Source: an uncultured bacterium
GTDB taxonomy: Bacteria > Krumholzibacteriota > Krumholzibacteriia > Krumholzibacteriales > Krumholzibacteriaceae
Direction: 5' to 3'
Assembly: GCA_963813815.1 (NCBI GenBank)
Contig: CAWFAD010000012.1
Span: 58,142 to 122,141, forward strand
Length of the DNA stretch: 64,000 nt
Below are positions 7,802 through 55,549 of this stretch, in pieces; the first letter of the stretch is position 1, and every line of letters starts with the position of its first letter. The notes beneath the pieces were generated by a model. That model was not told the origin of the DNA, did no database searches, and was given only the letters and a program-made list of their open reading frames with translations. The translations under genes and the position numbers were made by a program.

Positions 7802-7935
7802 CGACACGCTCCGTCCCGCCACCGCGCCCGCGGCGCCGGGCGGTTTGCATTATACGACAGCCGCCGCCGAGCCGCATAAGAAAAATCCCGGCCGCCGGGC
7901 GGCCGGGACGATTCGCGGACCCTTCGCGGCGGAGC

Positions 7936-8481
7936 CTATTCCCGCACTTCGGCGTACGCGCGCATGAACGATTTGAGGTTTCGCGGCCCGACGCGCCCAA
8001 AACGCTTCGTGAGGGGTTCCTCGATCGATTCGGGCTTGATGACGCCCGTCATCTTGACCGCCGCGCCGAGCATCGTCGTGTTCGTAATGGGGCGCCCGAG
8101 CTCCTCGACCGCGATTTTCGTCGCGTCGACCGTTGCGACCCGGATATCGGCGTAGCCGAACTGTTTCTTGATCTCCTCGGGGCTCTTCGCCGTGTTGACG
8201 ACGAGAACGCCGCCGGATTTCAGGCCCTTTCGGGGATTCGCGATCCGGAGGAGGCTCTGGTCGAGCACGATGACGACGTCCGGTTCGTTCACGGCGAACC
8301 GGGTCCGGAGAGGCGCATCGTCGACGCGGGAGAACGCGACGACCGGCGCGCCGCGCCGCTCCGGCCCGAAGCTCGGAAAGCTCTGCGCGTATCTGCCCTC
8401 GTTGATGACGGCGACGGCGAGCAACTCGGCGCTCGTCACCGCTCCCTGTCCGCCGCGTCCGTGAAATCTGATCTCCAGCAT
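7936..8481 (-). CDS. porG: 2-oxoacid:ferredoxin oxidoreductase gamma subunit
   Basis: The 181 aa protein begins MLEIRFHGRGGQGAVTSAELLA, which includes the GRGGQG motif of OFOR gamma subunits. It is the last gene of the porDAB-nuoEF-fdx-porG string. Confidence 0.8.
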   Translation of the reverse strand: MLEIRFHGRGGQGAVTSAELLAVAVINEGRYAQSFPSFGPERRGAPVVAFSRVDDAPLRTRFAVNEPDVVIVLDQSLLRIANPRKGLKSGGVLVVNTAKSPEEIKKQFGYADIRVATVDATKIAVEELGRPITNTTMLGAAVKMTGVIKPESIEEPLTKRFGRVGPRNLKSFMRAYAEVRE

Positions 8482-8488
8482 GTTCGTC

Positions 8489-9214
8489 CTACTTTTTTGT
8501 CGAACGGCAATCGACGCACGTGTCGAAATGATCTTCCGGAAGGTTCGCGATCTTCCGGAAATACTCGAGCTGTTTCACCGGGGCGAAATGCTTTCCGCAG
8601 ACCTTGCATGCGGCCATCGGAAAATCCGTCTTCCAGATGCGCCGCACACCGTCGCGCTCCTCCATCGGAATGACGCCCACCGGACAGATATAGTGGCACG
8701 AGCCGCACGCGATGCAATCCTCCGGCGCCTCCTCGAACGGCGTCGCGACGGCGCGCGTGTCGCCGCGGCTCTTGAATCCGATCGCCGATACCCCCACGAC
8801 CTCCCGGCAGACGCGAACGCACTGGCCGCAGAGGATGCACCCCTTGAAGTCGACCGGGAACATGCTCTTCTCGATCCCGAGGCTCGAGGCGAGCTCGCGG
8901 AGGCGCGGATGCGTCGAGTTCCGCGAGAGGAGCAGGTGCAGAACGAGCCGCCGCACGTTCAGAACGCGCTCGGTCGAGGTATTCACCTCGAGCCCCTCGG
9001 CCACCTCGTGGATGCACGAAACGACGAGGCGCTGGCGCTTCTTGTGCGTAACCTCGACCATGCAGAGCCGGCAGGCGCCGTACGGATGGAGCTCCTCGTT
9101 GCTGCAGAGGTTGGGGATGTCGATGTTGGCGTCGCGCGCGGCGTCGAGAATCGTCGTCCCCGCCGCGGCCGTCACCCGCCGTCCGTCGATCGTCAGTGTC
9201 ACCTTGTCCGCCAT
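8489..9214 (-). CDS. [2Fe-2S] plus 2x[4Fe-4S] ferredoxin-like protein, like the N-terminus of NuoG or HydA without a catalytic domain
   Basis: Reading from the internal Met MADKVTLTIDGRRVTAAAGTTILDAARDANIDIPNLC ... CRLCMVEV gives a 2Fe-2S ferredoxin fold. Two CxxCxxCxxxCP motifs follow, giving 241 aa. The upstream extension of the ORF was rejected because it overlaps nuoF in another frame. Confidence 0.75.
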   Translation of the reverse strand: MADKVTLTIDGRRVTAAAGTTILDAARDANIDIPNLCSNEELHPYGACRLCMVEVTHKKRQRLVVSCIHEVAEGLEVNTSTERVLNVRRLVLHLLLSRNSTHPRLRELASSLGIEKSMFPVDFKGCILCGQCVRVCREVVGVSAIGFKSRGDTRAVATPFEEAPEDCIACGSCHYICPVGVIPMEERDGVRRIWKTDFPMAACKVCGKHFAPVKQLEYFRKIANLPEDHFDTCVDCRSTKK

Positions 9215-9258
9215 GTCGGTTCCTTTGCCGGGGGCGGCGCGTCCCCGCGCCGCCATCG

Positions 9259-11109
9259 CTACGAAATGAGTATCGCGTCGAACTTGCAGGCCTCGAAACA
9301 GGCCCCGCACTTGATACACGTTTTCTGATCGATCGTATGAGCCTTTTTCTTCTCCCCCGTTGCCGCCTTCGTCGGGCATACTCGCGCGCACGCCGTGCAT
9401 CCGGTGCAGGCGTCCGCCGCGACCGTGAAGGCGATGAGCTCCTTGCAGACGCCGGCCGGGCACTTCCGGTCGCGGATATGCGCGAGGTACTCGTCCTTGA
9501 AATGCTTGATGGTGCTCAGCACGGGGAACGGCGCCGTGCCCCCGAGGGCGCAGAGCGAGCCGTCGATGACCCCCTTGCCGATCCATTCGAGCAGATCGAT
9601 ATCGCTCTCCACTCCCTTGCCCGCGCAGATCCGGTCGAGAATGGCGCGCATCTGGTAGACGCCCTCGCGGCACGGCGTGCACTTGCCGCAAGACTCCTGC
9701 TCGAGAAACTTGAGGAAATACCTGGCGACGTCCACCATGCAGGTGCGATCGTCCATGACGATCATGCCGCCCGAGCCCATCATCGAGCCCACCTTCGAGA
9801 GCTCGTCGAAATCGACCGGCATGTCGAGATGCTGCTCGGGGATGCAGCCGCCCGAGGGACCGCCCGTTTGTATCGCCTTGAACTTCCGGCCCTTCGGGAT
9901 GCCGCCGCCGATGCCGAACACGATCTCGCGGAGGGTGATTCCCATGGGGACCTCAACGAGACCGGTGTTGTTGATCTTGCCGACGAGCGAGAAGATCTTC
10001 GTTCCCGTGCTCCCCGCGGTGCCGATCGAGGCGTACCAGTCGGCGCCCTTGCTGATGATCGGCGGCACGTTCGCCCACGTTTCGACGTTGTTGAGGCAGG
10101 TCGGTTTGTCGTAGAGGCCCCGGTCGGTGGCGTGCACGTACTTCTGACGCGGCTCGCCGGCCCGCCCTTCGATCGAGGCGAAGAGCGCGGAGGATTCGCC
10201 GCAGACGAAGGCGCCGCCGCCGCGGTTGATCTTGATATCGAAGCTGAAATCCGTTCCGAGGATCCTTTCGCCGAGCAGCCCGTACGCGCGGGCGTTCTCG
10301 ATCGCAGAGGTGATGTTCGTCACGGCGAGCGGATACTCGTTGCGCACGTAGATGTACCCGTTGCTCGAGCCGATCGCGAAGGCGCCGATGATCATCCCCT
10401 CGAGCACGCTGTGCGGATTGCCCTCGAGGAGGCTTCGATCCATGTAGGCGCCCGGATCCCCCTCGTCGGCGTTGCAGATGACGTACTTCGGCTCGCCCTC
10501 CGCCTTGGCGGTCGATTCCCATTTCCAGCCCGTCATGAAGCCGCCGCCGCCCCGTCCGCGAAGCTTCGCCCTCGTCACCTCGTTGATGATGTCCCCGGGC
10601 TTCATCGCGAGCGCCTTGGCGAGCGCCGCGTAGCCTCCGATGGCGACGTAGTCGTCGATGCTCCGCGGATCGATCTGCCCGTTCATGCCGAAGATAAGCC
10701 GCATCTGCTTCCGGTAGAAGGGAACGTCGTGCTCGTGGAGGATTTTCTCCTTCGTCACCGGATCGCGGTACACGAGGCGGTCGATGATTTCGTCCTTGAG
10801 CACCGATTTCTCGATGATCTCGCCCGCGTCCTCGGTTTTCACGTGCTGGTAGAATATCTTCTTCGGCTGGATCACGACAAGCGGTCCGCGCTCGCAGAAT
10901 CCGTGACAGCCGCTCGTGCGAATCTCGACCTTGTTTCCGAGCCCGCGCTTCTCGATCTCCGCGCGGAAGTTGTCGATGAGCTTCTGCGTACCGTACGCGA
11001 GGCATCCCGTGCCGGCGCATATCACGATGGTCGGCTTTCTCGGGTCGCGCGCGGACGCGAGCTTCTGCTGGAGCGTCGCGAGCTCTTTCGCCGATTTAAG
11101 CTTCTTCAT
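9259..11109 (-). CDS. nuoF: NADH-binding flavoprotein of the NuoF/HydB/HndC type (FMN, NAD(H), [4Fe-4S]) with an N-terminal thioredoxin-like [2Fe-2S] domain and a C-terminal 2x[4Fe-4S] domain
   Basis: The 616 aa protein has a GRGGGGF glycine-rich loop, the ESCGKCTPCREG 4Fe-4S motif, and C-terminal CTGCTAC ... CIKCGAC ferredoxin motifs. Confidence 0.85.
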   Translation of the reverse strand: MKKLKSAKELATLQQKLASARDPRKPTIVICAGTGCLAYGTQKLIDNFRAEIEKRGLGNKVEIRTSGCHGFCERGPLVVIQPKKIFYQHVKTEDAGEIIEKSVLKDEIIDRLVYRDPVTKEKILHEHDVPFYRKQMRLIFGMNGQIDPRSIDDYVAIGGYAALAKALAMKPGDIINEVTRAKLRGRGGGGFMTGWKWESTAKAEGEPKYVICNADEGDPGAYMDRSLLEGNPHSVLEGMIIGAFAIGSSNGYIYVRNEYPLAVTNITSAIENARAYGLLGERILGTDFSFDIKINRGGGAFVCGESSALFASIEGRAGEPRQKYVHATDRGLYDKPTCLNNVETWANVPPIISKGADWYASIGTAGSTGTKIFSLVGKINNTGLVEVPMGITLREIVFGIGGGIPKGRKFKAIQTGGPSGGCIPEQHLDMPVDFDELSKVGSMMGSGGMIVMDDRTCMVDVARYFLKFLEQESCGKCTPCREGVYQMRAILDRICAGKGVESDIDLLEWIGKGVIDGSLCALGGTAPFPVLSTIKHFKDEYLAHIRDRKCPAGVCKELIAFTVAADACTGCTACARVCPTKAATGEKKKAHTIDQKTCIKCGACFEACKFDAILIS

Positions 11110-11605
11110 CGGTTTCTACCTTTTTCCCGAGGGCGGCGAGCACCTTGTTCGTCTTGGCGATCGTGATTTGGCCGTGATACTCGTCGTTCACGACGAGTAT
11201 GGGGCCGAGCGCACAGGCGCCGAGGCAGTTCACCGTCTCAAAGCTGAACTCTCGATCGCTCGTCGTTTCGCCCGAAGCGATGCCGAGCGTGCGTGCGATG
11301 TGGTCAGCGATCTGCGGGGCCCCGCGAACGTGGCACGCCGTTCCGAGACAGAGGCTCAGGCGGTAGCGGCCTTTCGGCGCGAGACTGAACGCGCGGTAGA
11401 AGGTCGCGAGGTGGTACACGAGACTCCGCGTCACGCCGAGACTCTCGACGAGAGCGTCGAGCGCCTCTCTCGGGAGGTAATTGAACTCCCGCTGGATATC
11501 CTGCATGATGGGGATCACGAAGCTCTTGTCGCGCCCGTACCGCGCGACGATCTCGTCGACCTTCGCTCCCACGGCATCGTTTCGTTTCGATCGGCTCGCT
11601 TCCAT
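11096..11605 (-). CDS. nuoE: NuoE/HydC-type [2Fe-2S] thioredoxin-like ferredoxin subunit
   Basis: The 169 aa protein has the CLGTACH ... CLGACALGP cysteine pattern of 24 kDa NuoE-like subunits. It overlaps the nuoF start by 14 nt. Confidence 0.85.
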   Translation of the reverse strand: MEASRSKRNDAVGAKVDEIVARYGRDKSFVIPIMQDIQREFNYLPREALDALVESLGVTRSLVYHLATFYRAFSLAPKGRYRLSLCLGTACHVRGAPQIADHIARTLGIASGETTSDREFSFETVNCLGACALGPILVVNDEYHGQITIAKTNKVLAALGKKVETDEEA

Positions 11606-11654: not shown

Positions 11655-12578
11655 CTAGAGCTCGGCTCTCGCGCGGAGCTTCTCCCATTCCCCCGTGACG
11701 CGACTCTGTATCTTCTCGATGAGCTCGGGCGTCAGATGGCGGAACCGCCCCTGAGGCTTGAGGTAGTCCGCGACCGGCCGCAGCGCGGGAACGTCGACCG
11801 TGATTCGGTACCGCCCCTTCTCGACTTCGTAGAGCGGGAACACACCCGTCTCGACGGCCAGCCGCCCGATCCAGATCGCCTTTTCGCTCGGAAGCCCCCA
11901 TCCCGTCGGACACACGGAGAGTATATGAATGTAGGCGGGGCCGCCGGCCTTCGCCGCCTTCTCGACCTTCTTCATGAGATCGAAGGGGTAGCTCGAGCAC
12001 GCCGTCGCGACGTAGGGGATGCCGTGCGCGGCCGCGATCTCCGGCATGTTCTTCTTCCACGTGACCTGCCCGGCCTTTATCTTGCCCGCCGGCGAGGTGG
12101 TCGTCGAGGCGCCGAACGGCGTTCCCGAGGATCGCTGCACGCCGGTGTTCATGTAGGCCTCGTTGTCGTAGCAGACATAGATGAAGCGATGCCCTCGCTC
12201 GAATGCGCCCGAAAGCGCCTGCAACCCGATGTCGCTCGTTGCGCCGTCGCCGCCCATGCCGAGGAAGATCGTCCCCTTCTCGGGGATCGCGCCCTTGCGC
12301 ACGAGCGCGCGGTAGGCGCCCTCGGCCCCCGTCGCGACCGCCGCGGCGTTTTCGAACGCGACGTGAATCCAGGGCACTCGCCAGTTGGTGAAGGGGAACG
12401 GCGAGGAGATGATCTCCATGCACCCCGTGGCCGAAGCGACGACGACGTTCTGCCCGAGCGCCTTTGCGACGAGCCGGACGGCGAGCGCTTCCGCGCACCC
12501 CTGACAGGCGCGATGTCCCGGGGCGAAGTACTCGCGCTTCGTGACGAGCCTCGAGGCGTATACGTTGAGCGATTCCAT
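11655..12578 (-). CDS. porB: Pyruvate/2-oxoacid:ferredoxin oxidoreductase beta subunit (TPP-binding)
   Basis: The 307 aa protein has the CQGCAE cysteine motif and the TPP-binding GDG ... NE region. Confidence 0.85.
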
Positions 12579-13762
12579 TACTCTCTCACCCCGTAGAAGA
12601 TATAATCTTCCTGCCGGATCGGCGCGCCGGAAGCGACGAGCTCCTCCGTTTTCGCGTACATCTTGATGAAGTCTTCCGGCGTAACGTCGCGGCCGGCGAA
12701 TCCCGCGAGGAAATTGGTGATCGCCGGCTTCTGCTTCTGCTCATAGAGCGCCGCGCGGATCTCGCTCGCCACCGGCCCGCCGGGACCGCCGTACGATATC
12801 GCCCGGTCGATAACGATGAGCTTTTTCACGCCCTTCACCGCGTCGCGGAGCTCGTCGAACGGAAACGGGCGCCAGAGGCGAAGCCGTATCTGCCCGACCG
12901 GCTTTCCCTGCTCGCGAAGGCGGTCGACCGCGATCGACGCGGTCTCCCCGAAGCTTCCCATCGTGACGATCGCCGTCTCGGCTCCGTCCATCTTGTAGGT
13001 TTCAACCGACTTGTACGCGCGACCGGTGATCTTCGCGATCTCGTCCCACGCCTTCATGATGACCGGCCTCGCGGCGAGGAGCGCCGCGTCCTGCGCCTTT
13101 TTCGTTTCGGCAAAAATGTTCGGAATGCCGAAGGCGCCCAGCGTGACGGGAGCGTCGGGAGTGAGCACGTTGACCGGTTTGAAGGGAGGAAGGTAACGCG
13201 CGGCCTGCTCCTTGTCCCAGTACTCGATGGCCTCGATGACGTGCGTCACGATGAACCCGTCGATGTTGATCATGACCGGTATCGAGACCGCCGGATCTTC
13301 GGCGACGCGAAAGGCGTAGAGCACGTGGTCGAAGAGCTCCTGCCCGTTGTCGGCGAACACCTGTATCCAGCCGCAGTCGCGCACCGACATCACGTCGGTG
13401 TGATCGTTCCAGATGCTCAGGGGTCCCGAAAGCGAGCGGTTCGCGAGGATCATCACGATCGGGAGCCGCAGGCTCGCCGCGATGAACACGATCTCGTTCA
13501 TGAGGGCGAGCCCCTGCGCGCTCGTGCAGGTGAAGGTGCGCGCCCCCATCGCGGAGGAGCCGCAGCACACGCTCATCGCCGAATGTTCCGATTCGACCGG
13601 TATGAACTCGGCGTCGAGCTCTCCCTCGGCGACGAGCTCGGCGAGGTGCTCGACGATGTGCGTCTGCGGGGTGATCGGATACGCCGCGACGACGTCGACG
13701 TTCGCCAGGGCGACCGCCTCCGCCGCGGCGATCGAGTTTTCGATTCCGACGCGTTTCGGCAT
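12578..13762 (-). CDS. porA: Pyruvate/2-oxoacid:ferredoxin oxidoreductase alpha subunit
   Basis: The 394 aa protein begins [34 protein letters not shown] and has the typical POR alpha domains I and III. Confidence 0.85.
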
Positions 13763-14068
13763 TTATTCCTCCGCCTCCTCCGCCATCGAGATGCAGCCCG
13801 TGATGCATTCCTGCGCGCAGATGCCGCAACCCTTGCAGTAGTAGAGGTCGGCCTCGAAGTAGCCTTCCTCATTCTTGCGGACCGCCGCGTCGGGACAGAA
13901 GAGGTAACAGACGCCGCACTTGACGCAGCGGGAATGATCCCACAGGGGCCGGATGGAGCGCCAGTCGCCGGTCCTATACTGCGCGGCGTTGCCGGCGTCG
14001 GAGACCGCGCAGCCGATCTCGATGTCTTTCCACCCGAGTTCTTCTTCCGATTTGACCGGCTTTTTCAT
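13763..14068 (-). CDS. porD: Pyruvate/2-oxoacid:ferredoxin oxidoreductase delta subunit (2x[4Fe-4S] ferredoxin)
   Basis: The 101 aa protein has two CxxCxxCxxxCP motifs (CVKCGVCYLFCP and CKGCGICAQEC). It is first in the cluster. Confidence 0.8.
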   Translation of the reverse strand: MKKPVKSEEELGWKDIEIGCAVSDAGNAAQYRTGDWRSIRPLWDHSRCVKCGVCYLFCPDAAVRKNEEGYFEADLYYCKGCGICAQECITGCISMAEEAEE

Positions 14069-14215
14069 GTCACTCCCCCGCGCTTCAGGGACGAAAAGCC
14101 CTCCCGACCCGATTCCCCGCCGTGAACGAAAAAAATTAGGCGAAATATACTCTCTTCGCCGCGCACCTTCAAGCGGAAACGGCGGGGGCCGCGCCCCCGC
14201 CGTCCGCCTGCGAGC

Positions 14216-16439: not shown

Positions 16440-18934
16440 ATGCCGAAAAAGAGCGCATTACGCCTTCCGCTCGCGGCCGCGATCCGGCCCTGCGCCGCCG
16501 TCGCCGCTCTGGCCATCGCCGCCGCGCCGGGGCCGCTTTTCGCCGTGGGCCACGCGCGGGATATCCGTTTCACGCAGATCTCCATCGAACAGGGGCTCTC
16601 GCAGAGCATCGTCGAGTGCATCATCCAGGACCGGCGCGGATTCATATGGATGGCCACCGAGGACGGGCTCAACAAGTTCGACGGGTACGATTTCACGATT
16701 CTCCGCCACGATCCCGACGATCCGAACAGCCTCGTCTACAACCAGCTCCTCTCCCTCTGCGAGGACCGCGACGGCCGCATATGGATCGGAACGTTCCAGG
16801 GCGGCCTCAACCGCTACGATCCCGCGACGAGGCGCTTTACCCTCTACACGCACGCGATCGGCGATTCCACGAGCATCAGCCACAATTCGATAAACGCGAT
16901 CGTCGATACGAAGGCCGGGGACCTCTGGATCGGCACCGATAACGGGCTCAACCGCTACGAGCGCCGAACGGATTCCTTCACCCGCTTTTACGGCGACTCG
17001 ACCGGCGAGAACGGACCCGGCCACAGCGGAATCCGCTGCATCCTCGAGGATCGCGGCGGCGGGGTCTGGATCGGCACGAACGGCGGCGGCCTCAGCCGTT
17101 ACGACCCGGCGAGCGGCCGATGGAGGCGCTACGCGCACGATCCCGGCGATCCCGGAAGCCTCAGCCACAACACGGTGCGCGCGATCCGCGAGGACCATGA
17201 GGGCGCGCTCTGGGTCGGCACCGTCGGCGGCGGACTCAACCGGCTCGACCGCCGGACGGATCGCTTCACCCGCTACCGGCACGACCAGGACGATCCGAAG
17301 AGTCTCGCTCACGATCAGGTGTTCGATATCCTCGAGGACCGCACAGGCGCCCTTTGGATCGGCACCAACGGCGGAGGGCTCGACCTCTTCGATCGCGAGA
17401 CCGGCGGTTTCATTCACTATCGGAACGATCCGAACGATCCGAACAGCTTGAGCTTCGACGAGATTCACGACATCTTCGAGGATCGATCGGGGATTCTGTG
17501 GCTCGGCACCTACGGGGGCGGGGCGAACAAGTTCGACACGAAGCGAAAGAGCTTCGTTCTCTACCGCCCGAATCCGGCGGATCCGGCGAGCGGGCTCAGC
17601 GCCGAGATCGTGTGGTCGATCAGCGAGGACGAGCGGGGAATCCTGTGGATCGGCACGCACGGAGGCGGGCTCAACCGCCTCGACCGCGCAACCGGGCGCT
17701 ACCGGCACTACCGCCACGATCCGGGCGATCCAACGAGCCTGAGCTCCGACATTGTGCGGATCGTGTACCGGGACCGTTCCGGAGCCTTCTGGATCGGCAC
17801 GCACGGAGGCGGCCTCTGCAGGTTCGACCGCTCGAGCGGCCGCTTCACCGCCTATCGTCACGACCCATCCGATCCGTCGAGCCTGAGCCATGACGAGATC
17901 AGATCGATATACGAGGATCGGCAGGGCGCGCTCTGGCTCGGCACGAACGGCGGCGGTCTCAACCGCATGGACCGCGCGACCGGCGTTTTCCGCCGCTACC
18001 GGTCCGATCCCAATGATTCAACGAGCCTCAGCAACGATTTCGTGCGCGCGATCTACGAGGACGACTCGGGGGGCTTCTGGATCGGCACGCAGGGGGGAGG
18101 GCTCAACCGCCTCGACCGCTCGACGGGCGTATTCACGCCGTTCCGGGCGAACCGGCTCGACGCGGGCGGCATCAGCAACGATTACATCTTCTCCATCTTC
18201 GAGGATTCGCGGCGAGGTATGTGGATCGCCACCTGGGGCGGCGGGTTCAACAGGTTCGACCGGCAGACGGGGACCTTCAGGCACTATACGATGAAGGACG
18301 GCCTCCCCAACAACTCCGTCTACGGCATGCTCGAGGACGAGGACGGCAACCTCTGGCTCAGCACGAACCGCGGGATATCGAGATTCGACCCACGGACGGA
18401 AACCTTCAAGAACTACACCGACGAGGACGGGCTCCAGAGCAACGAGTTCAACGGAGGGGCGTTCTTCAAGAGCCCCGCCGGGGAGATGTTCTTCGGCGGG
18501 ATCCACGGCTTCAACTCTTTCTTTCCGGGGGACATCAGGGACAATTCCTTCATCCCTCCCGTCATCATCACCTCGCTCTCGGTGCTGAACCGGCCGGCGG
18601 AGCTCGACACGCCGATCACGGATATTCATACGCTCCGGCTCTCGTATCGCGATTACCTTTTTTCGTTCGAGTTCGCCGCGCTCGATTTCACGGCGCCGGA
18701 CAAGAATCAATACGCCTACCTGATGGAGGGCCTCGATCGCGATTGGATAGCGACCCCCGCGGGAAGGCGCCACGCGAGCTACACGACCCTGCCCCCGGCC
18801 GCTACGTCTTCAAGGTGAAGGGCTCGAACAACGACGGCGTATGGAACGAGACGCCCGCGACGATATCGATCGTCATCACGCCTCCCTACTGGCGAACGCT
18901 CTGGTTTCGAAAAATGATATACTTTTTTTGCTGA
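16440..18934 (+). pseudogene. Sensor protein with two-component-regulator propeller repeats, Y_Y_Y domain and TM helix. It is frameshifted near 18795, and the reading frame ends inside a foreign low-GC insertion
   Basis: From the internal Met MPKKSALRL there is a signal peptide. More than 12 repeats of the LWIGTxxGGLNRxDRxTGxFxxYRHDPxDPxSL unit follow. At a C5G homopolymer the frame of ORF 16305..18818 moves into ORF 18221..18934. That second frame carries the Y_Y_Y segment GRYVFKVKGSNNDGVWNE and a TM helix ITPPYWRTLWF. Confidence 0.6.
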
Positions 18935-19585
18935 AAGGCTGGCGCCGTTGTACCTGTACCTTCGGTACCATGTCGAATGTGGCATGCTGTTGGCCGGTTA
19001 CAGTGCTTCAAATTCAATGATGATTCATACCACGATCATCAGACATGACCGCGCTGCATAGCCTAGCCACACGTGGTCTGCAGCGGCGTAAGGTCACGCG
19101 AATCAAAAGCACAAAAAATGTGCAACTTTTAGCATCCAGAGGTTTGGATATTTCCACAGTACATAATTGAGGGGATCATCTTCATGCACCACTCTTGGCA
19201 GCCGCAAGGTCATCCCGGGTGGTATCACGCTGCAGTGTGGTACTTATATGATATTACTTTTTTTTGGCTGAAAGGCTGGCGCCGTTGTACCCCTGTACCC
19301 TTTCAGGTACCATGTCCGAATGTGGCATGCTGTTGGCCCGGTTAACCAGTGCTTCAAATTCAATGATGATTCATACCACGATCATCAGACATGACCGCGC
19401 TGCATAGCCTAGCCACACGTGGTGCTGCAGCGGCGTAAGGTCACGCGAATCAACTGCACAAAAAATGTGCAACTTTTGCAGCACCAGAGGTTTGGATATT
19501 TGAGTATAATTAATATTAGAATTAGATATTTTATATTTATATTTATAATTATATTTATCTATTTAATATATTTTTTTTTTTTATA
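18914..19585. repeat. Low-GC (about 40-45%) insertion containing an imperfect tandem duplication of a roughly 250 bp unit, plus an AT-rich low-complexity tail
   Basis: Unit 1 is about 18914..19155 and unit 2 about 19248..19504. Both begin ATGATAT(T)ACTTTTTTTGCTGAAAGGCTGGCGCCGTTGTACC and end GGTTTGGATATTT. They differ by scattered 1-2 nt indels. Each unit has a short hairpin GCACAAAAAATGTGC. The tail at 19505..19585 is TATAATTAATATTAGAATTAGATATTTTATATTTATATTTATAATTATATTTATCTATTTAATATATTTTTTTTTTTT. The flanking DNA is about 68% GC. Confidence 0.6.
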
Positions 19586-20394
19586 CCTCGCCGCCGGCTT
19601 CATGGTCGCCGGGGTCGCGACCGTCTTTTACCGTCGCCGGCTCACCGGCGTCCGGCTCGCCGCCGAGCTCAGGGCGGCGCACAAGGCGCAGATGTCGATC
19701 ATGCCCCAGTCGGATCCGGCGATCGAGGGGTTCGAAATCTCCGGAACCTGCATCCCCGCCTACGAGGTCGGAGGCGATTTCTACGATTACTTCTGGCTCG
19801 GGAAGGATCGCCGCCGCTTCGGCATCGCCGTCGGCGACGTCGCGGGGAAGGCCATGAACGCCGCGATGATATCGGTCATGTCGAGCGGCATGCTCTCCTC
19901 GAAGGTCGATAACGCCGTTTCGGTCGCCGGCCTCATGCGCGACCTCAACGGGCCGCTCTTCAACAAGACCGACGATTACGTGTTCACGGCGCTCTGTCTT
20001 CTCTCGCTCGACGCCGGAGCGAAATCTGGCGTCTTACAGCGTCGCCGGATTCAACAACCCCATTCTCAAATCCCGCGCGGGCGTGCGTTCGCTCCCCGGA
20101 CGGGGACCGCAGTTCCCCCTCGGGAGCCTCGAGAACATCGCCTACGAGGAGACGGCCCTGCGGCTCGAACGTGGAGACGTTCTCCTTGTGTTTTCGGACG
20201 GACTCATCGAGGAGCGGAACAAGGCGGGCGAATTCTTCGGCCTCGAGCGCCTGCGCGCGCTTCTCGAGACCCTCGACACGGCGGGCATGACGGCGCGCGG
20301 GATCAAGGAGTCGATCGTCTCGGAGGTGCTCGCCTTCGCCGGAAAGCGGCGCCATGACGACGACATCACGCTCGTCGTCGTGAAGGCCGCCTAA
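19586..20394 (+). pseudogene. PP2C-family (SpoIIE/RsbU-like) Ser/Thr phosphatase domain. The 5' end is truncated by the insertion and there is a +1 frameshift near 20030. It is probably the C-terminal part of the upstream sensor gene
   Basis: Frame of ORF 19419..20357 reads LAAGFMVAGVATVFYRRRL (a TM helix) then AELRAAHKAQMSIMPQSD ... GGDFYDYFWL ... GIAVGDVAGKAMNAAM. It then shifts into ORF 20083..20394, which reads SYSVAGFNNPILKSRAGVRSLPGRG ... VLLVFSDGLIEERN ... DDITLVVVKAA. Confidence 0.6.
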
Positions 20395-21967: not shown

Positions 21968-22279
21968 AAACGCACAATATTCAGAATATTATGATTTATC
22001 TGATTTGTCAATGGTCAATGATTGAGCGTTATCCCTCGCCGCGGGAATCATAACGCGGATGCGCGGCTCCGCCGTAGCTCTCTCAAAGGCATGGCATTCG
22101 ACGCAATTATTCCATCAATAGATATTTATGATGACTTTAACTCTAGCTTATGCTACCCTAGCTGTGACTGGGGGATTCTTAATTCATTTCTAAATGGGTC
22201 TAGCCGTATTGAGGGAACTCTTTCCGAAACCTCAATCCGCCTTCCGCGGGTTGAGTGGTTATCCAAGGGGGGATCGTTG

Positions 22280-25200
22280 ATGAAAAAGGTGTTAGCCCTC
22301 GTGATCGGCGTCGGCCTCATTGCCCTGCTCATCGGCTCGGTCGCAGCCCGCGAAATTGCGAATCCCGGCAAGCGTCCCGTGAGAGATTGGTCGAGCGATG
22401 AGTCGCTCGATCTCGTCGATCCGGGTCTGCGCGGCCTCTACGAGACCGCCGCCGCGGATACGTACTGCATGGTCTGGTACACCTTTGAGACCAACAACTG
22501 GATGGGTTGGACCCCGATCGACAACACGGCTCAGGTGGATACGTTTTTCCACGTGGACGACTTCGCCGGCCTCGGCACCTCCTGGACTCCGCTCGAGGGC
22601 TTGAAGTCGATGTGGTGCGGAGCCGAAGAGGACCTTGATGATCCGTACATGTGCTCGTGGGAGTACGCCCCTGGCTACGGCAACTACTGGAACCAGATGC
22701 TGACGAGCGATCCGTTCGCCTTCCAAGGCACGATCAGCTTCACGTATACGATCAGGTGGGATTCGGAGCCCGGATACGATTACACTCGGATCGAGTACGA
22801 CGCTGGCGGCGGCAGCTGGGTGGAGCTTGCTGAGTTCGACGACCTCGGCGACAGCACGGGAACCGTTCTCGTGTACACGACGCAGGCTCGGACGAAGCTT
22901 CGCTTCCACTTCACGGCCGACGGCGCCTGGAGCGATCAGGACGGCCTGTGGAACACGAACGGCGCGTGCGTCGTCGACGCTCTGCGCATTCAGGACGCCG
23001 CGACGCTCAACCTGTACGAGAACTTCGAGACCGCGGCCGTCGACGCGAAAGACGCGGGGATCTGGCACGCGCGTCCGGAGACTCCATACGGCAGCTTCGC
23101 CGGCCTGTACACCGGCCTGACCGACAAGGATCCGTGCGGCGACAACTTCGGCACGCAGGTCGTGTTCTTCGTCGGGTCGAGCGAGATCAGCACGAGCTAC
23201 CCGGGTCTCTTCGACACTCCGTTCTGCACGGGCCCCGGCGGCACCAGCGCACCGTGCCAGGATGAGGGCATCGTGTCTCCGATCATCGACATGACGATGT
23301 ACTCGACGCTCTGCAACAACGTTCAGGACGGCACCATCCCGTCTACCGATCTGAACCTGCTCGGAGGCGCCATTCTCCGGTTCACCTCGTACCGCGATCT
23401 GCCGCTCTCGAACCTCGTGTTCTACACGTGGTCCGTCCGGTCGATCATCGACGGGTGCCCCGGCCAGTGGGTGGACGATAACTTCGTTTACTACGGCGCC
23501 GACATGGATTACATCTATGGAGGAGCCGGCGACGTGAGCAAGTTCATCGGCGGCAACGATCCGGTGCAGATCAGAATCGGTTGCACGGACATGTGCGACG
23601 CCTGGTACAACACGTACGGCAACTGCGCGGCGCACACTCCGTCGCCCTGGGTCGACAACGTGCGCCTGTACCGGTACAAAACCGCCGGTCCGCAGTGGGG
23701 ATCGCGCGACCTGGATTTCTTCCAGGACAACTTCCCCGAGGCTGAGTACAACATCGAGAGCTACGTCCGCTGCGACGCGGCGAACGACATCTTCGCGGGC
23801 GACAACCCGGTCATCCATCCGGGCGACTCGCTCGTGGTCGATTGCACGTCGATTATCGCGGACGGGCTCAAAGAGGACAACACCTTCGGCGGCGCCTCCG
23901 TGTACATCAACGTGAGAGCCAGCTACATCGGCCCCGCGCCGACGAAACCGGCTCTCAGCGGCGCCGCGCTCGCCGGATCGGTTCTCGTCAACGACGATCC
24001 GGAGACGTACGTGAACTTCAACTACGTGAGCACGAGCGGTGCCTGGACGAAGATTCAGTGCGACACCGCCCGGACGGGCGCCGGCATCGTCGACGGCAAG
24101 TACATGGTCGACCTCAACGACGAGCTCTTCACCCGCGGCTACAAGATCGACTACTACTTCACGGCCACGGACAAGAAGAACGTCACTTCGGCGTACCCGC
24201 GCTACTCGCGCTCGGGCCCGCCGTACTTCGAGTGGACCTGTCTCCCGACGCTCAACACCGACGTGCTCTTCGTAGATGACGGCTACGTCGAGCTGTACTG
24301 GCTGCCGGTCTTCGACGCCGTGCTGGCTCTGCCGGACGCCAAGATCGACATCTACGACGTGAACGCCCCGAGCTCGGGCGTCTCCAACGGTCCGGGAAGC
24401 CGTGCGAAGAACTACCAGCTGAGAAGCACGTACGAGACGATCGTGTGGGATTGCGGCGCCTACGAGTCCGTGACGATCAGCGAGGGCACGGCCCACAGCG
24501 ACAAGTCGAACGACTGCCAGATGCTCGTCGACTGGATGAGCCTCTCGGAGCACCAGTGCGGCCTCTGGGTCTGCGGCGACGACATCGCCTTCGACCTGGA
24601 CGGCGCGGCCGGCGGCTCCGCGCTTCTCCTCATGAGCTCCTGGTGCGGCGTTGACTACGTCGCGACGAGCTACTTCGAAGAGACGGGCGGCCGGTTGAGC
24701 GGCGGCGTCGTGACGCCGCTTCTCACGGGCAACACCGACTCGGGCATCTTCGTTCACAGCGGCGTGCCCGACAAGCTGTACGCCTCCGGCGCCTGCTTCA
24801 TCATCAACCAGTTCGACTGCCTCGAGAAGACGGCCGGCGGCAAGTACGCTCTGAGCTACCCTGCGTATCTCGGAACGAACTACTACGGCGCCATCTCGAA
24901 GGCGACCACGAACACGAGCGGGTTCCCGGTCCGCACCATGTGGTTCGGATTCAGCTACGCGTTTGTTCGTGACGACGTCAACACGGCTCCGATGGACAAG
25001 TTCGAGATCGCGAACGACGTTCTCGTCTGGATGCAGAACGAGACGAACCTCGTGATTTCGGGCAACGAGACTCCGTCGGCCTACGCGCTCGCGCAGAACT
25101 TCCCGAACCCCTTCAACCCGTCGACGACCATCCGGATCGACATGCGGGAGAAGGGCTTTGTGACGTTGAAGATCTACAACGTCGCCGGGCAGCTCGTGCG

Positions 25201-25354
25201 CACGCTCGTTGACGGCGTGAAGGATGCGGGTTCCTACAACATCGCCTGGGACGGCATGAACGACCGTGGCGGCGCTGTGGCGAGCGGCATCTACTTCTAC
25301 AAGATGGAGACCAAGGACTTCAGCCAGACGAAGAAGATGGTCATGCTGCGGTAG
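22280..25354 (+). CDS. Large secreted protein (1024 aa) with a C-terminal T9SS (Por secretion) sorting domain
   Basis: A strong SD (AAGGGGGG) precedes the ATG at 22280. A signal peptide MKKVLALVIGVGLIALLIGSVAA follows. The C-terminus FPNPFNPSTTIRIDMREKGFVTLKIYNVAGQLVRTLVDGVKDAGSYNIAWDGMNDRGGAVASGIYFYKMETKDFSQTKKMVMLR matches the T9SS CTD (TIGR04183-like). The central domains are not assignable from sequence. Confidence 0.75.
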   Translation: MKKVLALVIGVGLIALLIGSVAAREIANPGKRPVRDWSSDESLDLVDPGLRGLYETAAADTYCMVWYTFETNNWMGWTPIDNTAQVDTFFHVDDFAGLGTSWTPLEGLKSMWCGAEEDLDDPYMCSWEYAPGYGNYWNQMLTSDPFAFQGTISFTYTIRWDSEPGYDYTRIEYDAGGGSWVELAEFDDLGDSTGTVLVYTTQARTKLRFHFTADGAWSDQDGLWNTNGACVVDALRIQDAATLNLYENFETAAVDAKDAGIWHARPETPYGSFAGLYTGLTDKDPCGDNFGTQVVFFVGSSEISTSYPGLFDTPFCTGPGGTSAPCQDEGIVSPIIDMTMYSTLCNNVQDGTIPSTDLNLLGGAILRFTSYRDLPLSNLVFYTWSVRSIIDGCPGQWVDDNFVYYGADMDYIYGGAGDVSKFIGGNDPVQIRIGCTDMCDAWYNTYGNCAAHTPSPWVDNVRLYRYKTAGPQWGSRDLDFFQDNFPEAEYNIESYVRCDAANDIFAGDNPVIHPGDSLVVDCTSIIADGLKEDNTFGGASVYINVRASYIGPAPTKPALSGAALAGSVLVNDDPETYVNFNYVSTSGAWTKIQCDTARTGAGIVDGKYMVDLNDELFTRGYKIDYYFTATDKKNVTSAYPRYSRSGPPYFEWTCLPTLNTDVLFVDDGYVELYWLPVFDAVLALPDAKIDIYDVNAPSSGVSNGPGSRAKNYQLRSTYETIVWDCGAYESVTISEGTAHSDKSNDCQMLVDWMSLSEHQCGLWVCGDDIAFDLDGAAGGSALLLMSSWCGVDYVATSYFEETGGRLSGGVVTPLLTGNTDSGIFVHSGVPDKLYASGACFIINQFDCLEKTAGGKYALSYPAYLGTNYYGAISKATTNTSGFPVRTMWFGFSYAFVRDDVNTAPMDKFEIANDVLVWMQNETNLVISGNETPSAYALAQNFPNPFNPSTTIRIDMREKGFVTLKIYNVAGQLVRTLVDGVKDAGSYNIAWDGMNDRGGAVASGIYFYKMETKDFSQTKKMVMLR

Positions 25355-25382: not shown

Positions 25383-25415
25383 AAAACGGCAGCCCATTCA
25401 CTGGGCTGCCGTTTT
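25383..25415. terminator. Bidirectional rho-independent terminator hairpin between the convergent T9SS cargo gene and the kinase gene
   Basis: AAAACGGCAGCCC-attcact-GGGCTGCCGTTTT is a perfect 13 bp stem flanked by A and T runs. It overlaps the last codons of the kinase at 25398. Confidence 0.5.
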
Positions 25416-27773: not shown

Positions 27774-27809
27774 TTCGCTTGTCCCGCGGCAGAGTGATCG
27801 ATCGCCCTT

Positions 27810-30236: not shown

Positions 30237-30247
30237 TCCAAGCGCCT

Positions 30248-33121: not shown

Positions 33122-33193
33122 GCGATAAACCCGAAATGAAAGCCGCTTCACATCGAAAAAAGCGCTGCCGCCGAAATCGGCCCCCGAGCTCCC

Positions 33194-33684: not shown

Positions 33685-35193
33685 CTATTTCATCTTCGGA
33701 AGCTTCACGAGCCCCTTCTTCTGCAGGAGCTGGAACTTGCTGCGGGACTCCGTGATCATCCTGTCGGCCTTGCTGATGAGCTGGTCCCAGGTGAGGTCGA
33801 TGCGCGCCACGCCCTGCTCGACCGCCTTGCGGCCCACGGCCGCCGCCTCGCGCGGATAGACCTCCACTTCGTCCATCGTCGGGATGAGGTAATCCTCGCG
33901 AAGCCCCTTGTCCTCGGCGACGCGCGCGAGCTCGCGGGCGGCCGCGATGCACATCTCGTCGGTGATCGTGCGGGCCATAACGTCGAGCGTTCCGCGGAAG
34001 ATGCCCGGGAAACCGAGGGAGTTGTTGACCTGGTTCGGGAAGTCGCTACGGCCGGTGGCGACGACCCTCGCGCCCGCCTCCTTCGCCTCCCACGGCCAGA
34101 TCTCGGGGATCGGGTTGGCGCAGACGAACACGATCGCGTCCTTCGCCATCCGCGCGATCCATTCCTTTTTGATCGTGTCGGGGCCCTGCTTCGAAAGGGC
34201 GATGAGCACGTCGGCCCCCTCGATCGCGCGCGGCACGTCTCCCGTTCTCCCCTCGCCGTTCGTCTTCTGCGCCATCTCCCATTTCTCTTTCCAATCCTGC
34301 TTGAGCTCCTCCTCGCGGCCGAGGTGGAGGATCCCCTTGCTGTCGCACATGATGACGTTCTTCGGCGAAACGCCGGCGAGCATGATCATGCGGGCGATGC
34401 AGATGTTCGCGGCCCCCGCGCCCACCATCGTCACCTTGACCTTCGAGATATCCTTGCCGACGATCTTCACCGCGTTGATGAGACCCGCTACGGTAACTGC
34501 GGCCGTGCCCTGCTGGTCGTCGTGCCACACGGGGATGCGGCATTCGCGCCGGAGCGTATCGAGAACGCGGAAGCACTTGGGCTGCGAAATATCCTCGAGG
34601 TTGATGCCGCCGAAGGAGGGCTGCAGGAGCTTCACGAACTCGATGAGCTTGTCCGGGTCCTTCGTATCGACGCAGATCGGGAAGGCGTCGACCCCGCCGA
34701 GATACTTGAAGAGCATCCCCTTGCCCTCCATGACCGGCAGGCCCGCCTCGGGACCGATGTCGCCGAGTCCGAGAACGCGCGTGCCGTCCGAGACCACGGC
34801 GACGAAGTTCCCCTTGTTCGTGTGCTCGAAAACCTTTTCGGGGTTATCGCGGATATCGAGGCACGGCTTCGCGACTCCGGGGGTGTACCAGATCGCGAAA
34901 TCGTCGAAGCTGCGGATGCAGGCCTTCGGCATGATCTCGATCTTCCCCTTGTAGAAGGGGTGCATGATCATGGCGTCGATCCCGGGCTGCTTGGCCTTCT
35001 CGACGAGCTCTTCCTTCGTGACTGGTTTCATGATCTTCGGAGCGGGCTTTTTCGGCGCCGCTTTCCGCGGGGCCGGTTTCTTGGCGGGCTTCGCCGCCTT
35101 TTTCGCGGCCTTCTTCGGGGACTTCTTCACGGCCTTTTTCGGCGTTTTCTTCGCCGGCTTTTTCTTCGAGGCCTTCGCCTTCTTCGGGCTCAT
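33685..35193 (-). CDS. maeB: NAD(P)-dependent malic enzyme with an unusual N-terminal Lys/Ala/Pro-rich tail
   Basis: The malic enzyme N- and NAD-binding domains are present (IRDNPEKVFEHTNKGNFVAVVSDGTRVLGLGDIG ... TMVGAGAANICIA). A roughly 60 aa in-frame tail SPKKAKASKKKPAKKTPKKAVKKSPKKAAKKAAKPAKKPAPRKAAPKKPAPK precedes the catalytic core. The start is placed at the Met of MSPKK and could be further downstream. Confidence 0.8.
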   Translation of the reverse strand: MSPKKAKASKKKPAKKTPKKAVKKSPKKAAKKAAKPAKKPAPRKAAPKKPAPKIMKPVTKEELVEKAKQPGIDAMIMHPFYKGKIEIMPKACIRSFDDFAIWYTPGVAKPCLDIRDNPEKVFEHTNKGNFVAVVSDGTRVLGLGDIGPEAGLPVMEGKGMLFKYLGGVDAFPICVDTKDPDKLIEFVKLLQPSFGGINLEDISQPKCFRVLDTLRRECRIPVWHDDQQGTAAVTVAGLINAVKIVGKDISKVKVTMVGAGAANICIARMIMLAGVSPKNVIMCDSKGILHLGREEELKQDWKEKWEMAQKTNGEGRTGDVPRAIEGADVLIALSKQGPDTIKKEWIARMAKDAIVFVCANPIPEIWPWEAKEAGARVVATGRSDFPNQVNNSLGFPGIFRGTLDVMARTITDEMCIAAARELARVAEDKGLREDYLIPTMDEVEVYPREAAAVGRKAVEQGVARIDLTWDQLISKADRMITESRSKFQLLQKKGLVKLPKMK

Positions 35194-35260
35194 CGATCTA
35201 CCTCCCGGGGTCAATCCCGACTTCGGAACGCTCGCCGCTCCATATCCGATTCGAACGCTA

Positions 35261-35809: not shown

Positions 35810-35827
35810 GCGAAGCTCCTGTTTCCG

Positions 35828-36652: not shown

Positions 36653-36654
36653 CG

Positions 36655-53553: not shown

Positions 53554-53600
53554 GGCTTGTGTCCCGGGCGGCCCCGGAGGGGGGCCTCCTTCGCGCGGCG

Positions 53601-55478: not shown

Positions 55479-55549
55479 AGACGACCTCCGGCCGATATGA
55501 GCAATAAAGATAAACTGAATAAATAAGAAATCCCTGACGGTGTCAAGGG

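Follow-up and report, generated by a model that had tools for sequence, protein, structure and literature searches.

Two NuoE/NuoF/ferredoxin trios in a Krumholzibacteriota genome are probable HydABC-type bifurcating cores with different partner enzymes

Results

Two trios with different gene order

A stretch of 64,000 nucleotides (64 kb, referred to below as the window) from an uncultured bacterium of the Krumholzibacteriaceae (GenBank assembly GCA_963813815.1, contig CAWFAD010000012.1, positions 58,142 to 122,141) carries two sets of genes for a NuoE-like protein, a NuoF-like protein and a ferredoxin (Fdx). The G+C content of the window is 61-71% and its genes lie mostly on the minus strand. 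A tblastn search over the window returned exactly two copies each of NuoE, NuoF and Fdx, and both trios lie on the minus strand in the orders that a first-pass annotation had read from the letters, E-F-Fdx for copy 1 (8489-11605) and F-E-Fdx for copy 2 (52192-55478). We propose that both trios are probably BfuABC cores of the HydABC-type electron-bifurcating family, copy 1 within a Por-Bfu enzyme built on a pyruvate:ferredoxin oxidoreductase (POR) and copy 2 within a distinct complex that resembles proline dehydrogenase (PDH). The six genes are listed here with their predicted Bfu subunits, the Pfam scan having covered every window open reading frame (ORF) with coding-like codon composition.

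Copy 1
11096-11605, minus strand: NuoE1 (BfuC), 169 amino acids (aa), C1 [2Fe-2S] site; Pfam 2Fe-2S_thioredx (PF01257) at 1.5e-47; ligands C86, C91, C127 and C131
9259-11109, minus strand: NuoF1 (BfuB), 616 aa; Pfam, ligand alignment, best Protein Data Bank (PDB) match 9mqx_B (WorB) at 3.9e-236
8489-9214, minus strand: Fdx1 (short Type-2 BfuA), 241 aa, [2Fe-2S] and 2x[4Fe-4S]; Pfam Fer2_4 and Fer4, full-length match to WorA (9mqx_A) at 6.7e-47

Copy 2
53601-55478, minus strand: NuoF2 (BfuB), 625 aa, CTG start; Pfam, ligand alignment, PDB matches 9mqx_B at 1.3e-225 and 7t2r_B at 1.4e-225
53014-53553, minus strand: NuoE2 (BfuC), 179 aa; translation, NCBIfam NuoE/HoxE matches; ligands C105, C110, C146 and C150
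52192-53017, minus strand: Fdx2 (short BfuA), 274 aa after frame correction; [2Fe-2S], 2x[4Fe-4S], C-x12-C-x5-C-x2-C and a basic tail

Domains and cofactor ligands of the Bfu family

In the description of the Bfu family by Schut et al. (2022, PMC9304861), BfuB is recognised in InterPro by a Nuo51 FMN-binding domain (IPR011538), an SLBB domain (IPR019554), an NADH 4Fe-4S domain (IPR019575) and a ferredoxin-type domain (IPR017896), BfuC by a NuoE-type thioredoxin-like [2Fe-2S] domain (IPR002023), and BfuA by at least one 2Fe-2S and one 4Fe-4S ferredoxin-type domain. Both NuoF proteins contain PF01512, PF10589 and Fer4, with the SLBB domain (PF10531) below its gathering score (23.6 and 25.9 versus 27). 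The NuoE proteins are recognised by PF01257 (NuoE1) and by NCBIfam NuoE/HoxE models (NuoE2) and retain four Cys each, and both ferredoxins combine Fer2_4/Fer2 with Fer4_7 and conserve 4 + 8 Cys. Pfam and alignment also bore out the N-terminal thioredoxin-like 2Fe-2S extension and the C-terminal 2x[4Fe-4S] domain that had been noticed earlier in both NuoF copies; in NuoF1 these frame an FMN/NADH site, an N3-type [4Fe-4S] cluster and a His/Cys B2/Zn site. The ligands of each cluster were read from alignments of the window proteins with orthologues from related loci. The BfuB alignment also included WorB and Thermoanaerobacter kivui HydB, and that of BfuA included WorA; the BfuC alignment consists of window and related-locus sequences only.

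B5, N-terminal [2Fe-2S] of NuoF: copy 1 C31, C36, C68, C72; copy 2 C33, C38, C69, C73
B1 in NuoF: copy 1 C474, C477, C480, C520; copy 2 C484, C487, C490, C530
B2/Zn in NuoF: copy 1 C457, H544, C550, C555; copy 2 C467, H554, C560, C565
B3/B4 in NuoF: copy 1 eight Cys; copy 2 eight Cys
C1 in NuoE: copy 1 four Cys; copy 2 four Cys
A1 in Fdx: copy 1 four Cys; copy 2 four Cys
A2/A4 in Fdx: copy 1 eight Cys; copy 2 eight Cys

The best solved relatives of both NuoF proteins are bifurcating enzymes, namely WorABCSL (9mqx), the HydABC of T. kivui and Acetobacterium woodii (8a6t/7q4v), the NiFe-HydABCSL of Acetomicrobium mobile (7t2r) and Nfn-Bfu (9n5u/9bov/8oh5). The first-pass annotation had taken the trios for NADH ports, and in its plainest form this would make them simple non-bifurcating NADH:acceptor modules in which ferredoxin is not an obligatory third substrate, so that copy 1 would serve a pyruvate:NAD+ oxidoreductase and copy 2 an NADH-linked Hdr/proline dehydrogenase. 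There is precedent for such modules: NuoEF are plain ports in complex I, in NAD-dependent formate dehydrogenases and in NAD-reducing hydrogenases, which are among the weaker PDB matches to both NuoF; characterised non-bifurcating HydABC homologues are listed in PMC9304861; and NCBIfam models of the NADH-dependent phenylglyoxylate dehydrogenase PadEFGHI match all four POR subunits of copy 1 below threshold. However, both NuoF proteins keep the N-terminal [2Fe-2S], the C-terminal 2x[4Fe-4S] and the B2-site His, which is near-universal in BfuB and absent from non-bifurcating homologues (Schut et al. 2022, PMC9304861), and bifurcating BfuB structures score 750-790 bits with both, about twice the 300-400 bits of plain NuoF or formate dehydrogenase beta. 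We consider a plain port unlikely, and the earlier term appears to understate the function, since with these features of bifurcating BfuB the module most likely handles NAD(H) and ferredoxin together.

Neither ferredoxin has a His-ligated cluster, an A5 cluster, an H-cluster or a pterin domain, and both are therefore classed as short Type-2 BfuA. Fdx1 starts at the ATG at 9214 (N-terminus MADKVTLTIDGRR) and its C-terminal Cys, C203, C206, C233 and C236, form a zinc-finger-like CxxC-x26-CxxC pattern, the protein ending five residues past C236. C203 and C206 align with the finger Cys of WorA, in an alignment that ended ahead of the second pair. Fdx2 has the spacing C-x12-C-x5-C-x2-C followed by a basic tail. 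The C-terminal Cys domain of BfuA tracks the partner, CxxC...CxxC occurring with POR and C-x12-C-x5-C-x2-C with the G and H proteins described below. A longer motif had been proposed for the two ferredoxins, of which LDAAR.A..DIP..C and PYGACRLC.VEV are indeed common to both; its N-terminal part holds only loosely, as Fdx1 has eight rather than five residues before DGR and Fdx2 reads NGRARPAREGES.

Ancient divergence of the two copies

In BLASTP comparisons, NuoE1 and NuoE2 are 44% identical over 141 aa (E 3e-46), NuoF1 and NuoF2 58% over 622 aa (E 0; 59% in the alignment identity matrix) and Fdx1 and Fdx2 49% over 182 aa (E 2e-51), and the kinship of the copies that the first reading had noticed is clear. 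A recent in-genome duplication was rejected on the strength of the identity matrix and neighbour-joining trees, because the NuoF copies resemble solved BfuB proteins as much as they resemble each other (59%): WorB and T. kivui HydB share 57% and 56% identity with NuoF1, and 58% and 56% with NuoF2. Orthologues from the same gene context are 82-90% identical for NuoF1 (POR-linked loci) and 73-87% for NuoF2, and the matrices and neighbour-joining trees of NuoE and Fdx show the same split by gene context as NuoF. Judged from these comparisons, the two copies diverged long ago as paralogues or were acquired separately; each goes with its own partner, which its lineage retains across phyla. The idea that the module is re-used on different partners is supported by the conserved synteny elsewhere; that it is generic is not, as the copies are 59% identical to each other versus 73-90% to orthologues in the same context.

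Copy 1 within a POR operon

The genes and features around copy 1, in the direction of transcription, are the following.

14144-14172, minus strand: promoter-like site in the spacer between acs and porD, 9/12 matches in a consensus scan (consensus level only); possible start of the Por-Bfu operon
13763-14068, minus strand: porD, POR delta, 2x[4Fe-4S]; Pfam Fer4 families, NCBIfam TIGR02179 (PorD_KorD) 92.8 versus a cutoff of 60
12578-13762, minus strand: porA, POR alpha; Pfam POR_N at 1e-67 and PFOR_II, best NCBIfam match PorA_Arch at 468 bits, below its cutoff of 550
11655-12578, minus strand: porB, POR beta, binding thiamine pyrophosphate; Pfam TPP_enzyme_C, NCBIfam NF008819 "pyruvate synthase subunit PorB" 414 versus an equivalog cutoff of 405
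8489-11605, minus strand: NuoE1, NuoF1 and Fdx1, as above
7936-8481, minus strand: porG, POR gamma; Pfam POR at 2.6e-43, NCBIfam TIGR02175 221.7 versus a cutoff of 81
7885-7909, minus strand: strong terminator-like hairpin, 27 nt past the porG stop, with 11 pairs (9 G-C) and a T run behind it

The gene order is porD-porA-porB-E-F-A-porG, with gaps of -14 to +49 nt. Because porG comes after the trio, the trio lies inside the POR operon, as had been claimed for it; porB and porG flank it, with gaps of 7-49 nt. A gene for an AMP-forming acetyl-CoA synthetase (acs) is found directly upstream of the operon (Pfam, NCBIfam), a neighbour that would be compatible with acetate assimilation via pyruvate synthesis. 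The arrangement D-A-B-E-F-A-G recurs in three related loci (L002, L003 and L004) with Fdx 74-91% identical, and two loci of Deltaproteobacteria (L089 and L090) have the order G-D-A-B-E-F-A with Fdx 69% identical. The position of porG thus depends on the lineage, first in the Deltaproteobacteria and last in the lineage of the window, so that the trio is "inside" the POR operon only in the latter. As for the substrate, PorB exceeds its equivalog cutoff (414 versus 405), PorA does not reach its own (468 versus 550), and PorD and PorG pass subfamily-level models only.

This arrangement matches the Por-Bfu class predicted by Schut et al. (2022, PMC9304861; e.g. in Dehalococcoides mccartyi 195), in which four POR subunits and BfuABC share one cluster. 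The BfuB proteins of that class belong to clades 35, 44 or 45 of the published BfuB tree; WorB, the best solved relative of NuoF1, is a clade 45 enzyme. The BfuA of Por-Bfu has the Zn finger and lacks the adaptor helix of WorA (2025 paper). In the window, the genes for POR alpha, beta, gamma and delta share a cluster with BfuABC, and Fdx1 is a Type 2 BfuA with the Zn-finger motif and without a C-terminal adaptor helix. Unlike the known cases, the window lineage is neither Chloroflexi nor syntrophic Proteobacteria, and its D-A-B-E-F-A-G order differs from the deltaproteobacterial G-D-A-B-E-F-A. Copy 1 is a new putative Por-Bfu member, in a new lineage and with a new gene order. No biochemical characterisation of Por-Bfu was found in the literature. 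The closest solved structure for NuoF1, NuoF2 and Fdx1 alike is WorABCSL of A. mobile (9MQX, PMC12318220), whose WorA is, like Fdx1, a short BfuA without A3 and A5 clusters and with a C-terminal 4-Cys zinc finger. In contrast to copy 1, WorABCSL has a tungsten aldehyde oxidoreductase as its partner, together with a WorS nanowire; a C-terminal adaptor helix is present in WorA, and identity is 57-58% for BfuB and 37-39% for BfuA.

Gene boundaries of copy 2

The first-pass annotation ended copy 2 at 52192, which stands only after removal of one extra base. As sequenced, Fdx2 has no stop at 52192 and its frame stays open to 49934, giving a protein of 1027 aa that is identical to database protein P0121. 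DNA alignment with a relative revealed an extra G in a run of nine (G9; C9 on the plus strand) at 52431-52439 (CAGGGGGGGGGAGC). In tblastn the ferredoxin homology lies in frame -1 for 53017-52433 and in frame -2 for 52431-52201, the change falling precisely on this run, which is the only 9-base homopolymer in the window. With one base removed, Fdx2 is 274 aa long and ends at 52192 with an ATGA overlap onto gene G; its start at 53017 overlaps the NuoE2 stop codon as ATGA as well. In the related locus L006, a 279-aa ferredoxin ends in an ATGA overlap onto a 753-aa gene, and all close homologues of the downstream part (G) are separate proteins of about 743-764 aa. A natural BfuA-GltD fusion of the NfnA kind was rejected on these grounds: the junction is a one-base insertion in the G9 run, relatives have two separate genes and, among the best 120 matches listed, only the window's own P0121 spans 1027 aa. 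P0121 stands in public databases as a real protein of that length and is a product of the frame break.

Two further frame switches were found, one in the DAO-family gene Pb near 46214-46295, which is split into ORFs 46202-46675 and 45489-46406, and one in the alpha subunit of a 2-oxoacid:ferredoxin oxidoreductase (OFOR) near 37149-37253, split into ORFs 37088-37921 and 36655-37107. With three such breaks within 64 kb, and with close relatives that come from long-read-style assemblies of metagenome-assembled genomes (MAGs), these are probably assembly indels rather than biology. At the other end of the trio, the CTG start codon of NuoF2 (55476-55478, minus strand) lies 6 nt past a GGAGG. CTG and GGAGG, at a spacing of 6-7 nt, are kept in all 12 related loci compared (L006-L010, L012, L014, L015, L018, L020, L027 and L052), several of which have an in-frame stop just upstream and no ATG, GTG or TTG between that stop and the CTG. 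The BfuB gene of copy 2 has been truncated or mis-started by gene callers.

A conserved cluster downstream of copy 2

The copy 2 trio is followed by four genes, denoted G (GltD/MvhD flavoprotein), H (HdrD-like) and Pa and Pb (PDH-like alpha and beta), while F, E and A stand for NuoF, NuoE and the ferredoxin.

55550-57529, minus strand: PycB, pyruvate carboxylase subunit B or oxaloacetate decarboxylase alpha; Pfam, NCBIfam, synteny; operon membership uncertain
52192-55478, minus strand: NuoF2, NuoE2 and Fdx2, as above
49934-52195, minus strand: G, 753-aa flavoprotein; Pfam Fer4_20, Pyr_redox_2, Fer4 and FlpD, PDB, NCBIfam
48801-49955, minus strand: H, HdrD/TfrB-like, 384 aa, 2x[4Fe-4S] and two complete CCG motifs; Pfam Fer4_8 and CCG x2, motifs read in the sequence
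46653-48800, minus strand: Pa, 715 aa, Fer2_4, Pyr_redox_2 and BFD; Pfam, best PDB match 1y56_A at 4.1e-21, NCBIfam soxA (N-terminal region)
45489-46675, minus strand: Pb, DAO-family flavoprotein, PDH beta/SoxB-like, frame-split in the window; Pfam DAO on both halves, tblastn

Residues of about 25-520 of G form a GltD/NfnB-like FAD/NAD(P)H domain, which is closest in the PDB to NfnA of Nfn-Bfu (9bov_A, 3.8e-88), and residues of about 550-735 match the HdrA C-terminal 2x[4Fe-4S] ferredoxin domain followed by MvhD (NCBIfam HdrA2 at 564-734). H contains both C...CCG...CxxC sets, with NCBIfam TfrB and LdhH matches below their cutoffs. That copy 2 heads an Hdr/MvhD/GltD operon, as the earlier reading had it, therefore needs one amendment: "Hdr" here is an HdrD/TfrB-like protein in which HdrC and HdrB are fused, and there is no canonical HdrA. 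Pa resembles the alpha subunit of L-proline dehydrogenase and the N-terminal part of SoxA, its match to 1y56_A covering residues 39-295 only, and an intact orthologue of Pb from the related locus L008 matches 1y56_B at 4.6e-45. The Pa and Pb genes lie side by side and are homologous to chains A and B of 1Y56. From F2 to Pb the gaps are -23 to +47 nt, with ATGA overlaps, and downstream of Fdx2 they are -23 to 0 nt.

The PycB gene, together with a 66-aa ORF without family (57569-57769, minus strand), lies directly upstream of the trio in every related locus that reaches there, even where the further flanks differ (L008), and both are absent beside G-H-Pa-Pb clusters that lack the trio. No gene for a biotin carboxylase or for Oad beta/gamma is adjacent to PycB, and a weak terminator-like hairpin (55532-55548) lies between the PycB gene and NuoF2.

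Species-representative genomes were scanned with an alignment of G, and the 80 loci obtained (L009-L088) were classified by tblastn with the window proteins. Four gene contexts were distinguished.

Context I: PycB-F-E-A-G-H-Pa-Pb, in UBP1, Krumholzibacteriota and further MAGs (16 genomes, G at least 47% identical)
Context II: G-H-Pa-Pb without the trio, in Spirochaetota, Lentisphaerota and Eisenbacteria
Context III: OFOR alpha/beta/gamma-G-H-polyferredoxin/MvhD, in Acidobacteriota, KSB1 and Planctomycetota
Context IV: E-F-short G-A, in Desulfobacterota, Syntrophales and Chloroflexota

The order F-E-A-G-H-Pa-Pb is kept in 16/16 species-level genomes with G at least 47% identical, where the contig extends far enough. 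Taken together, the four contexts show the Bfu trio to be portable on its own, and likewise the G-H pair, which occurs with no trio at all in Spirochaetota and Acidobacteriota. Directly upstream of the cluster in five context II loci, all from Spirochaetota, lies a gene for 1-pyrroline-5-carboxylate (P5C, or L-glutamate gamma-semialdehyde) dehydrogenase (TIGR01236, 798 versus a cutoff of 614), and one Spirochaetota locus carries, in addition, a gene of the proline racemase family and one for a peptide transporter. A proline-type substrate is therefore our best guess for Pa and Pb, although the window itself has neither a P5C dehydrogenase nor a proline-racemase gene.

The trios could also be free-standing NADH:ferredoxin oxidoreductases that are merely co-transcribed with their neighbours and rebalance the ferredoxin pool against NAD(H) without attachment. 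The short BfuA has no catalytic domain of its own, a homologue of it is encoded alone elsewhere, and G-H-Pa-Pb occurs without the trio in Spirochaetota, all of which would suit such an enzyme. The lone homologue is a 237-aa BfuA-like ferredoxin in locus L001 (10001-10714) that shares 70% identity and the Cys pattern of the Zn finger with Fdx1; it adjoins OmpA-family and GAF genes, and no NuoE, NuoF or POR genes lie within 10 kb of it. On the other hand, in the lineage of the window the POR trio is set between porB and porG with the short gaps given above, WorA, which is just as short, is seen in the WorABCSL structure to dock on its partner by way of the C-terminal Zn-finger region, the C-terminal Cys domain of BfuA differs systematically by partner, and the trio lineages hold their partners across phyla. 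We regard detached enzymes as improbable and favour BfuABC cores that would be physically associated with the products of the neighbouring genes.

Comparison of copy 2 with known complexes

The GltD domain of G is closest to that of NfnA in Nfn-Bfu/StnABC (9BOV, 9N5U, 8OH5), and all of these are linked to Bfu. In NfnA, however, the GltD domain is inserted in BfuA past the 2Fe-2S domain, while G is a separate gene in the related loci that reach the junction, with a different domain order and with added HdrA-type ferredoxin and MvhD domains; and where Nfn-Bfu has three subunits, copy 2 adds H, Pa and Pb, which are kept downstream in 16/16 genomes where the contig allows. Copy 2 is not Nfn-Bfu, because G is a separate polypeptide and four extra subunits are conserved. 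The MvhD domain and the HdrA C-terminal ferredoxin domain recall HdrABC-MvhAGD (5ODC), as does H, an HdrC-type 2x[4Fe-4S] part and two CCG motifs fused as in HdrD/TfrB; unlike that complex, copy 2 has a GltD-type flavoprotein in place of the HdrA core and no hydrogenase. Pa and Pb find their best matches in the A and B chains of the alpha4beta4 enzyme PDH1 of Pyrococcus horikoshii (1Y56; 4.1e-21 and 4.6e-45), but Pa, with its 715 aa, has an extra N-terminal Fer2_4 and a C-terminal BFD [2Fe-2S] domain, and the pair is embedded in an Hdr-like/Bfu cluster. In the Bam enzyme, NuoEFG-like subunits are combined with HdrA-, MvhD- and HdrD-like subunits, a resemblance to copy 2 that serves here as a lead only. 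This class II benzoyl-CoA reductase, BamBCDEFGHI ("Bam-Bfu"), is a member of Bfu (PMC9304861). Unlike Bam-Bfu, copy 2 has no gene for BamB (tungsten aldehyde oxidoreductase type), its flavoprotein is of the GltD type and its partner is apparently a DAO-family dehydrogenase. The portable NuoEF-ferredoxin core and the Por-Bfu class were both published in 2022; none of the eleven functionalities listed there fits copy 2. We found no description of its seven-gene architecture in the literature and no such entry in the supplement of PMC9304861, and the cluster is conserved and apparently undescribed.

Search for a hydrogenase or formate dehydrogenase

Hydrogenases make up about half of all BfuABC clusters, and formate dehydrogenases are numerous among them as well (PMC9304861). 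The true partner of one trio could therefore be an [FeFe] or [NiFe] hydrogenase, or a formate dehydrogenase, encoded at some other genomic position, in which case the neighbouring genes would be incidental. Pfam found no Fe-hydrogenase, NiFe-hydrogenase or molybdopterin domain in the coding-like ORFs of the window, six-frame motif scans of the window found no H-cluster or NiFe signature, and tblastn found no match in it to molybdopterin domains, the NfnA-type carriers matching only by their 2Fe-2S, GltD and 4Fe-4S parts. A hidden hydrogenase or formate dehydrogenase inside the window is thereby rejected, in agreement with the first reading. Nor was either enzyme found within 10 kb on either side in the related loci with listed Pfam content. 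Both BfuA proteins are of the short Type-2 kind, without H-cluster or pterin domain, and housekeeping or regulatory genes separate both trios from the window edges, the nearest of which is no less than 7.9 kb away. A distant partner of this kind is, in our judgement, very improbable, and the adjacent enzymes are preferred as partners of both trios.

Other features of the window

Two more OFOR clusters lie divergently at 35261-37921 (minus strand) and 38541-40970 (plus strand); they have no delta subunits or Bfu genes, their alpha and gamma subunits were verified by Pfam, and a malic enzyme gene (33685-35214) adjoins them. Three consecutive genes for large Ser/Thr protein kinases with TPR repeats (791, 834 and 967 aa) occupy 25398-33151 on the minus strand. 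A protein of 1110 aa with a C-terminal sorting domain of the type IX secretion system (T9SS) is encoded upstream, at 22022-25354 on the plus strand. The G+C content is lower, 56%, for 18001-20000, a stretch that contains a T8 run (19258-19265) and the longest homopolymer of the window (T12, 19571-19582), the latter inside a SpoIIE-domain ORF that starts at 19419; no coding-like ORF was found at 18819-19418.

Discussion

The results of the current study suggest that two BfuABC cores of the HydABC type are probably wired to two different enzymes in one genome. We propose a common mechanism for both by analogy with solved members of the family. BfuB, the NuoF-like subunit, would bind FMN and NAD(H), with its C-terminal 2x[4Fe-4S] domain facing ferredoxin, BfuC would hold a mobile [2Fe-2S] cluster, and the short BfuA, with its [2Fe-2S], 2x[4Fe-4S] and 4-Cys tail, would wire the partner enzyme to this core. 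Electrons from the partner would enter through the A4, A2 and A1 clusters of BfuA and reach the FMN/B1/B5/C1 site in BfuB and BfuC, from which a hydride would pass to NAD+, and B3 and B4 would carry low-potential electrons out to ferredoxin. The process as a whole would be reversible.

In copy 1, the path would run from the four-subunit POR through PorD to BfuA and the core, and the oxidation of pyruvate, or its synthesis from acetyl-CoA and CO2, may be coupled to NAD(H) and ferredoxin at once. The third couple for POR is pyruvate/acetyl-CoA + CO2, with an E0' of about -500 mV (PMC9304861, Table 1). In copy 2, BfuABC would be joined to G, H and the archaeal-type pair Pa/Pb, and the complex would most likely link NAD(H) and ferredoxin to an amine/imine couple of high potential, for instance proline/P5C. 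The potential of proline/P5C is near -120 mV. In that case NADH could serve as mid-potential donor, a role that Schut et al. suggest for it in Nuo- and Rub-Bfu; alternatively, reduced ferredoxin may help to drive the oxidation of proline to NADH.

Several points weigh against this interpretation of the two clusters. Conserved cofactor sites do not prove bifurcation. POR is already able to reduce ferredoxin directly (about -500 mV, PMC9304861), so the benefit of adding NAD is not obvious; PorB is the one subunit to indicate pyruvate at the equivalog level of NCBIfam, and two conventional 2-oxoacid oxidoreductase clusters are also present in the window. The BfuA-like ferredoxin encoded alone in L001 belongs on this side as well. 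For copy 2, the genes for BfuA2 and Pb, like that for the OFOR alpha subunit, are frame-disrupted, and if the breaks were real, the complex would be damaged in this genome. There is no P5C dehydrogenase gene next to the copy 2 cluster in the window, the G-H-Pa-Pb module of Spirochaetota works without any Bfu trio, which makes the trio an add-on, and G has an NAD(P)H site of its own, so that the third substrate could, as in Nfn-Bfu, be NADPH.

A further suggestion, which we put forward tentatively, is that copy 2 represents a new class of Bfu enzyme whose third substrate would be a high-potential imino/amino acid couple such as proline/P5C and which would have two potential bifurcating centres in series, an NfnB-like FAD and the Bfu FMN/Fe-S site. 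If true, strict anaerobes would be able to oxidise proline by co-oxidising reduced ferredoxin, or NADH would reduce ferredoxin at the expense of P5C.

Bfu is the least understood of the four electron-bifurcating families, and its members other than hydrogenases are mostly predictions. Two partner-specific Bfu cores in one genome, from a lineage that is itself poorly known, provide direct evidence of an old, portable core that co-evolves with each partner. The GltD/MvhD-HdrD pair likewise appears as a reusable adaptor, occurring with PDH-like enzymes and with 2-oxoacid oxidoreductases, with or without Bfu. Both clusters are concrete targets for expression and cryo-EM. Copy 1 extends the hypothetical Por-Bfu to a new phylum-level group, and copy 2 points to proline-type amino-acid oxidation as a possible new bifurcation-coupled reaction.

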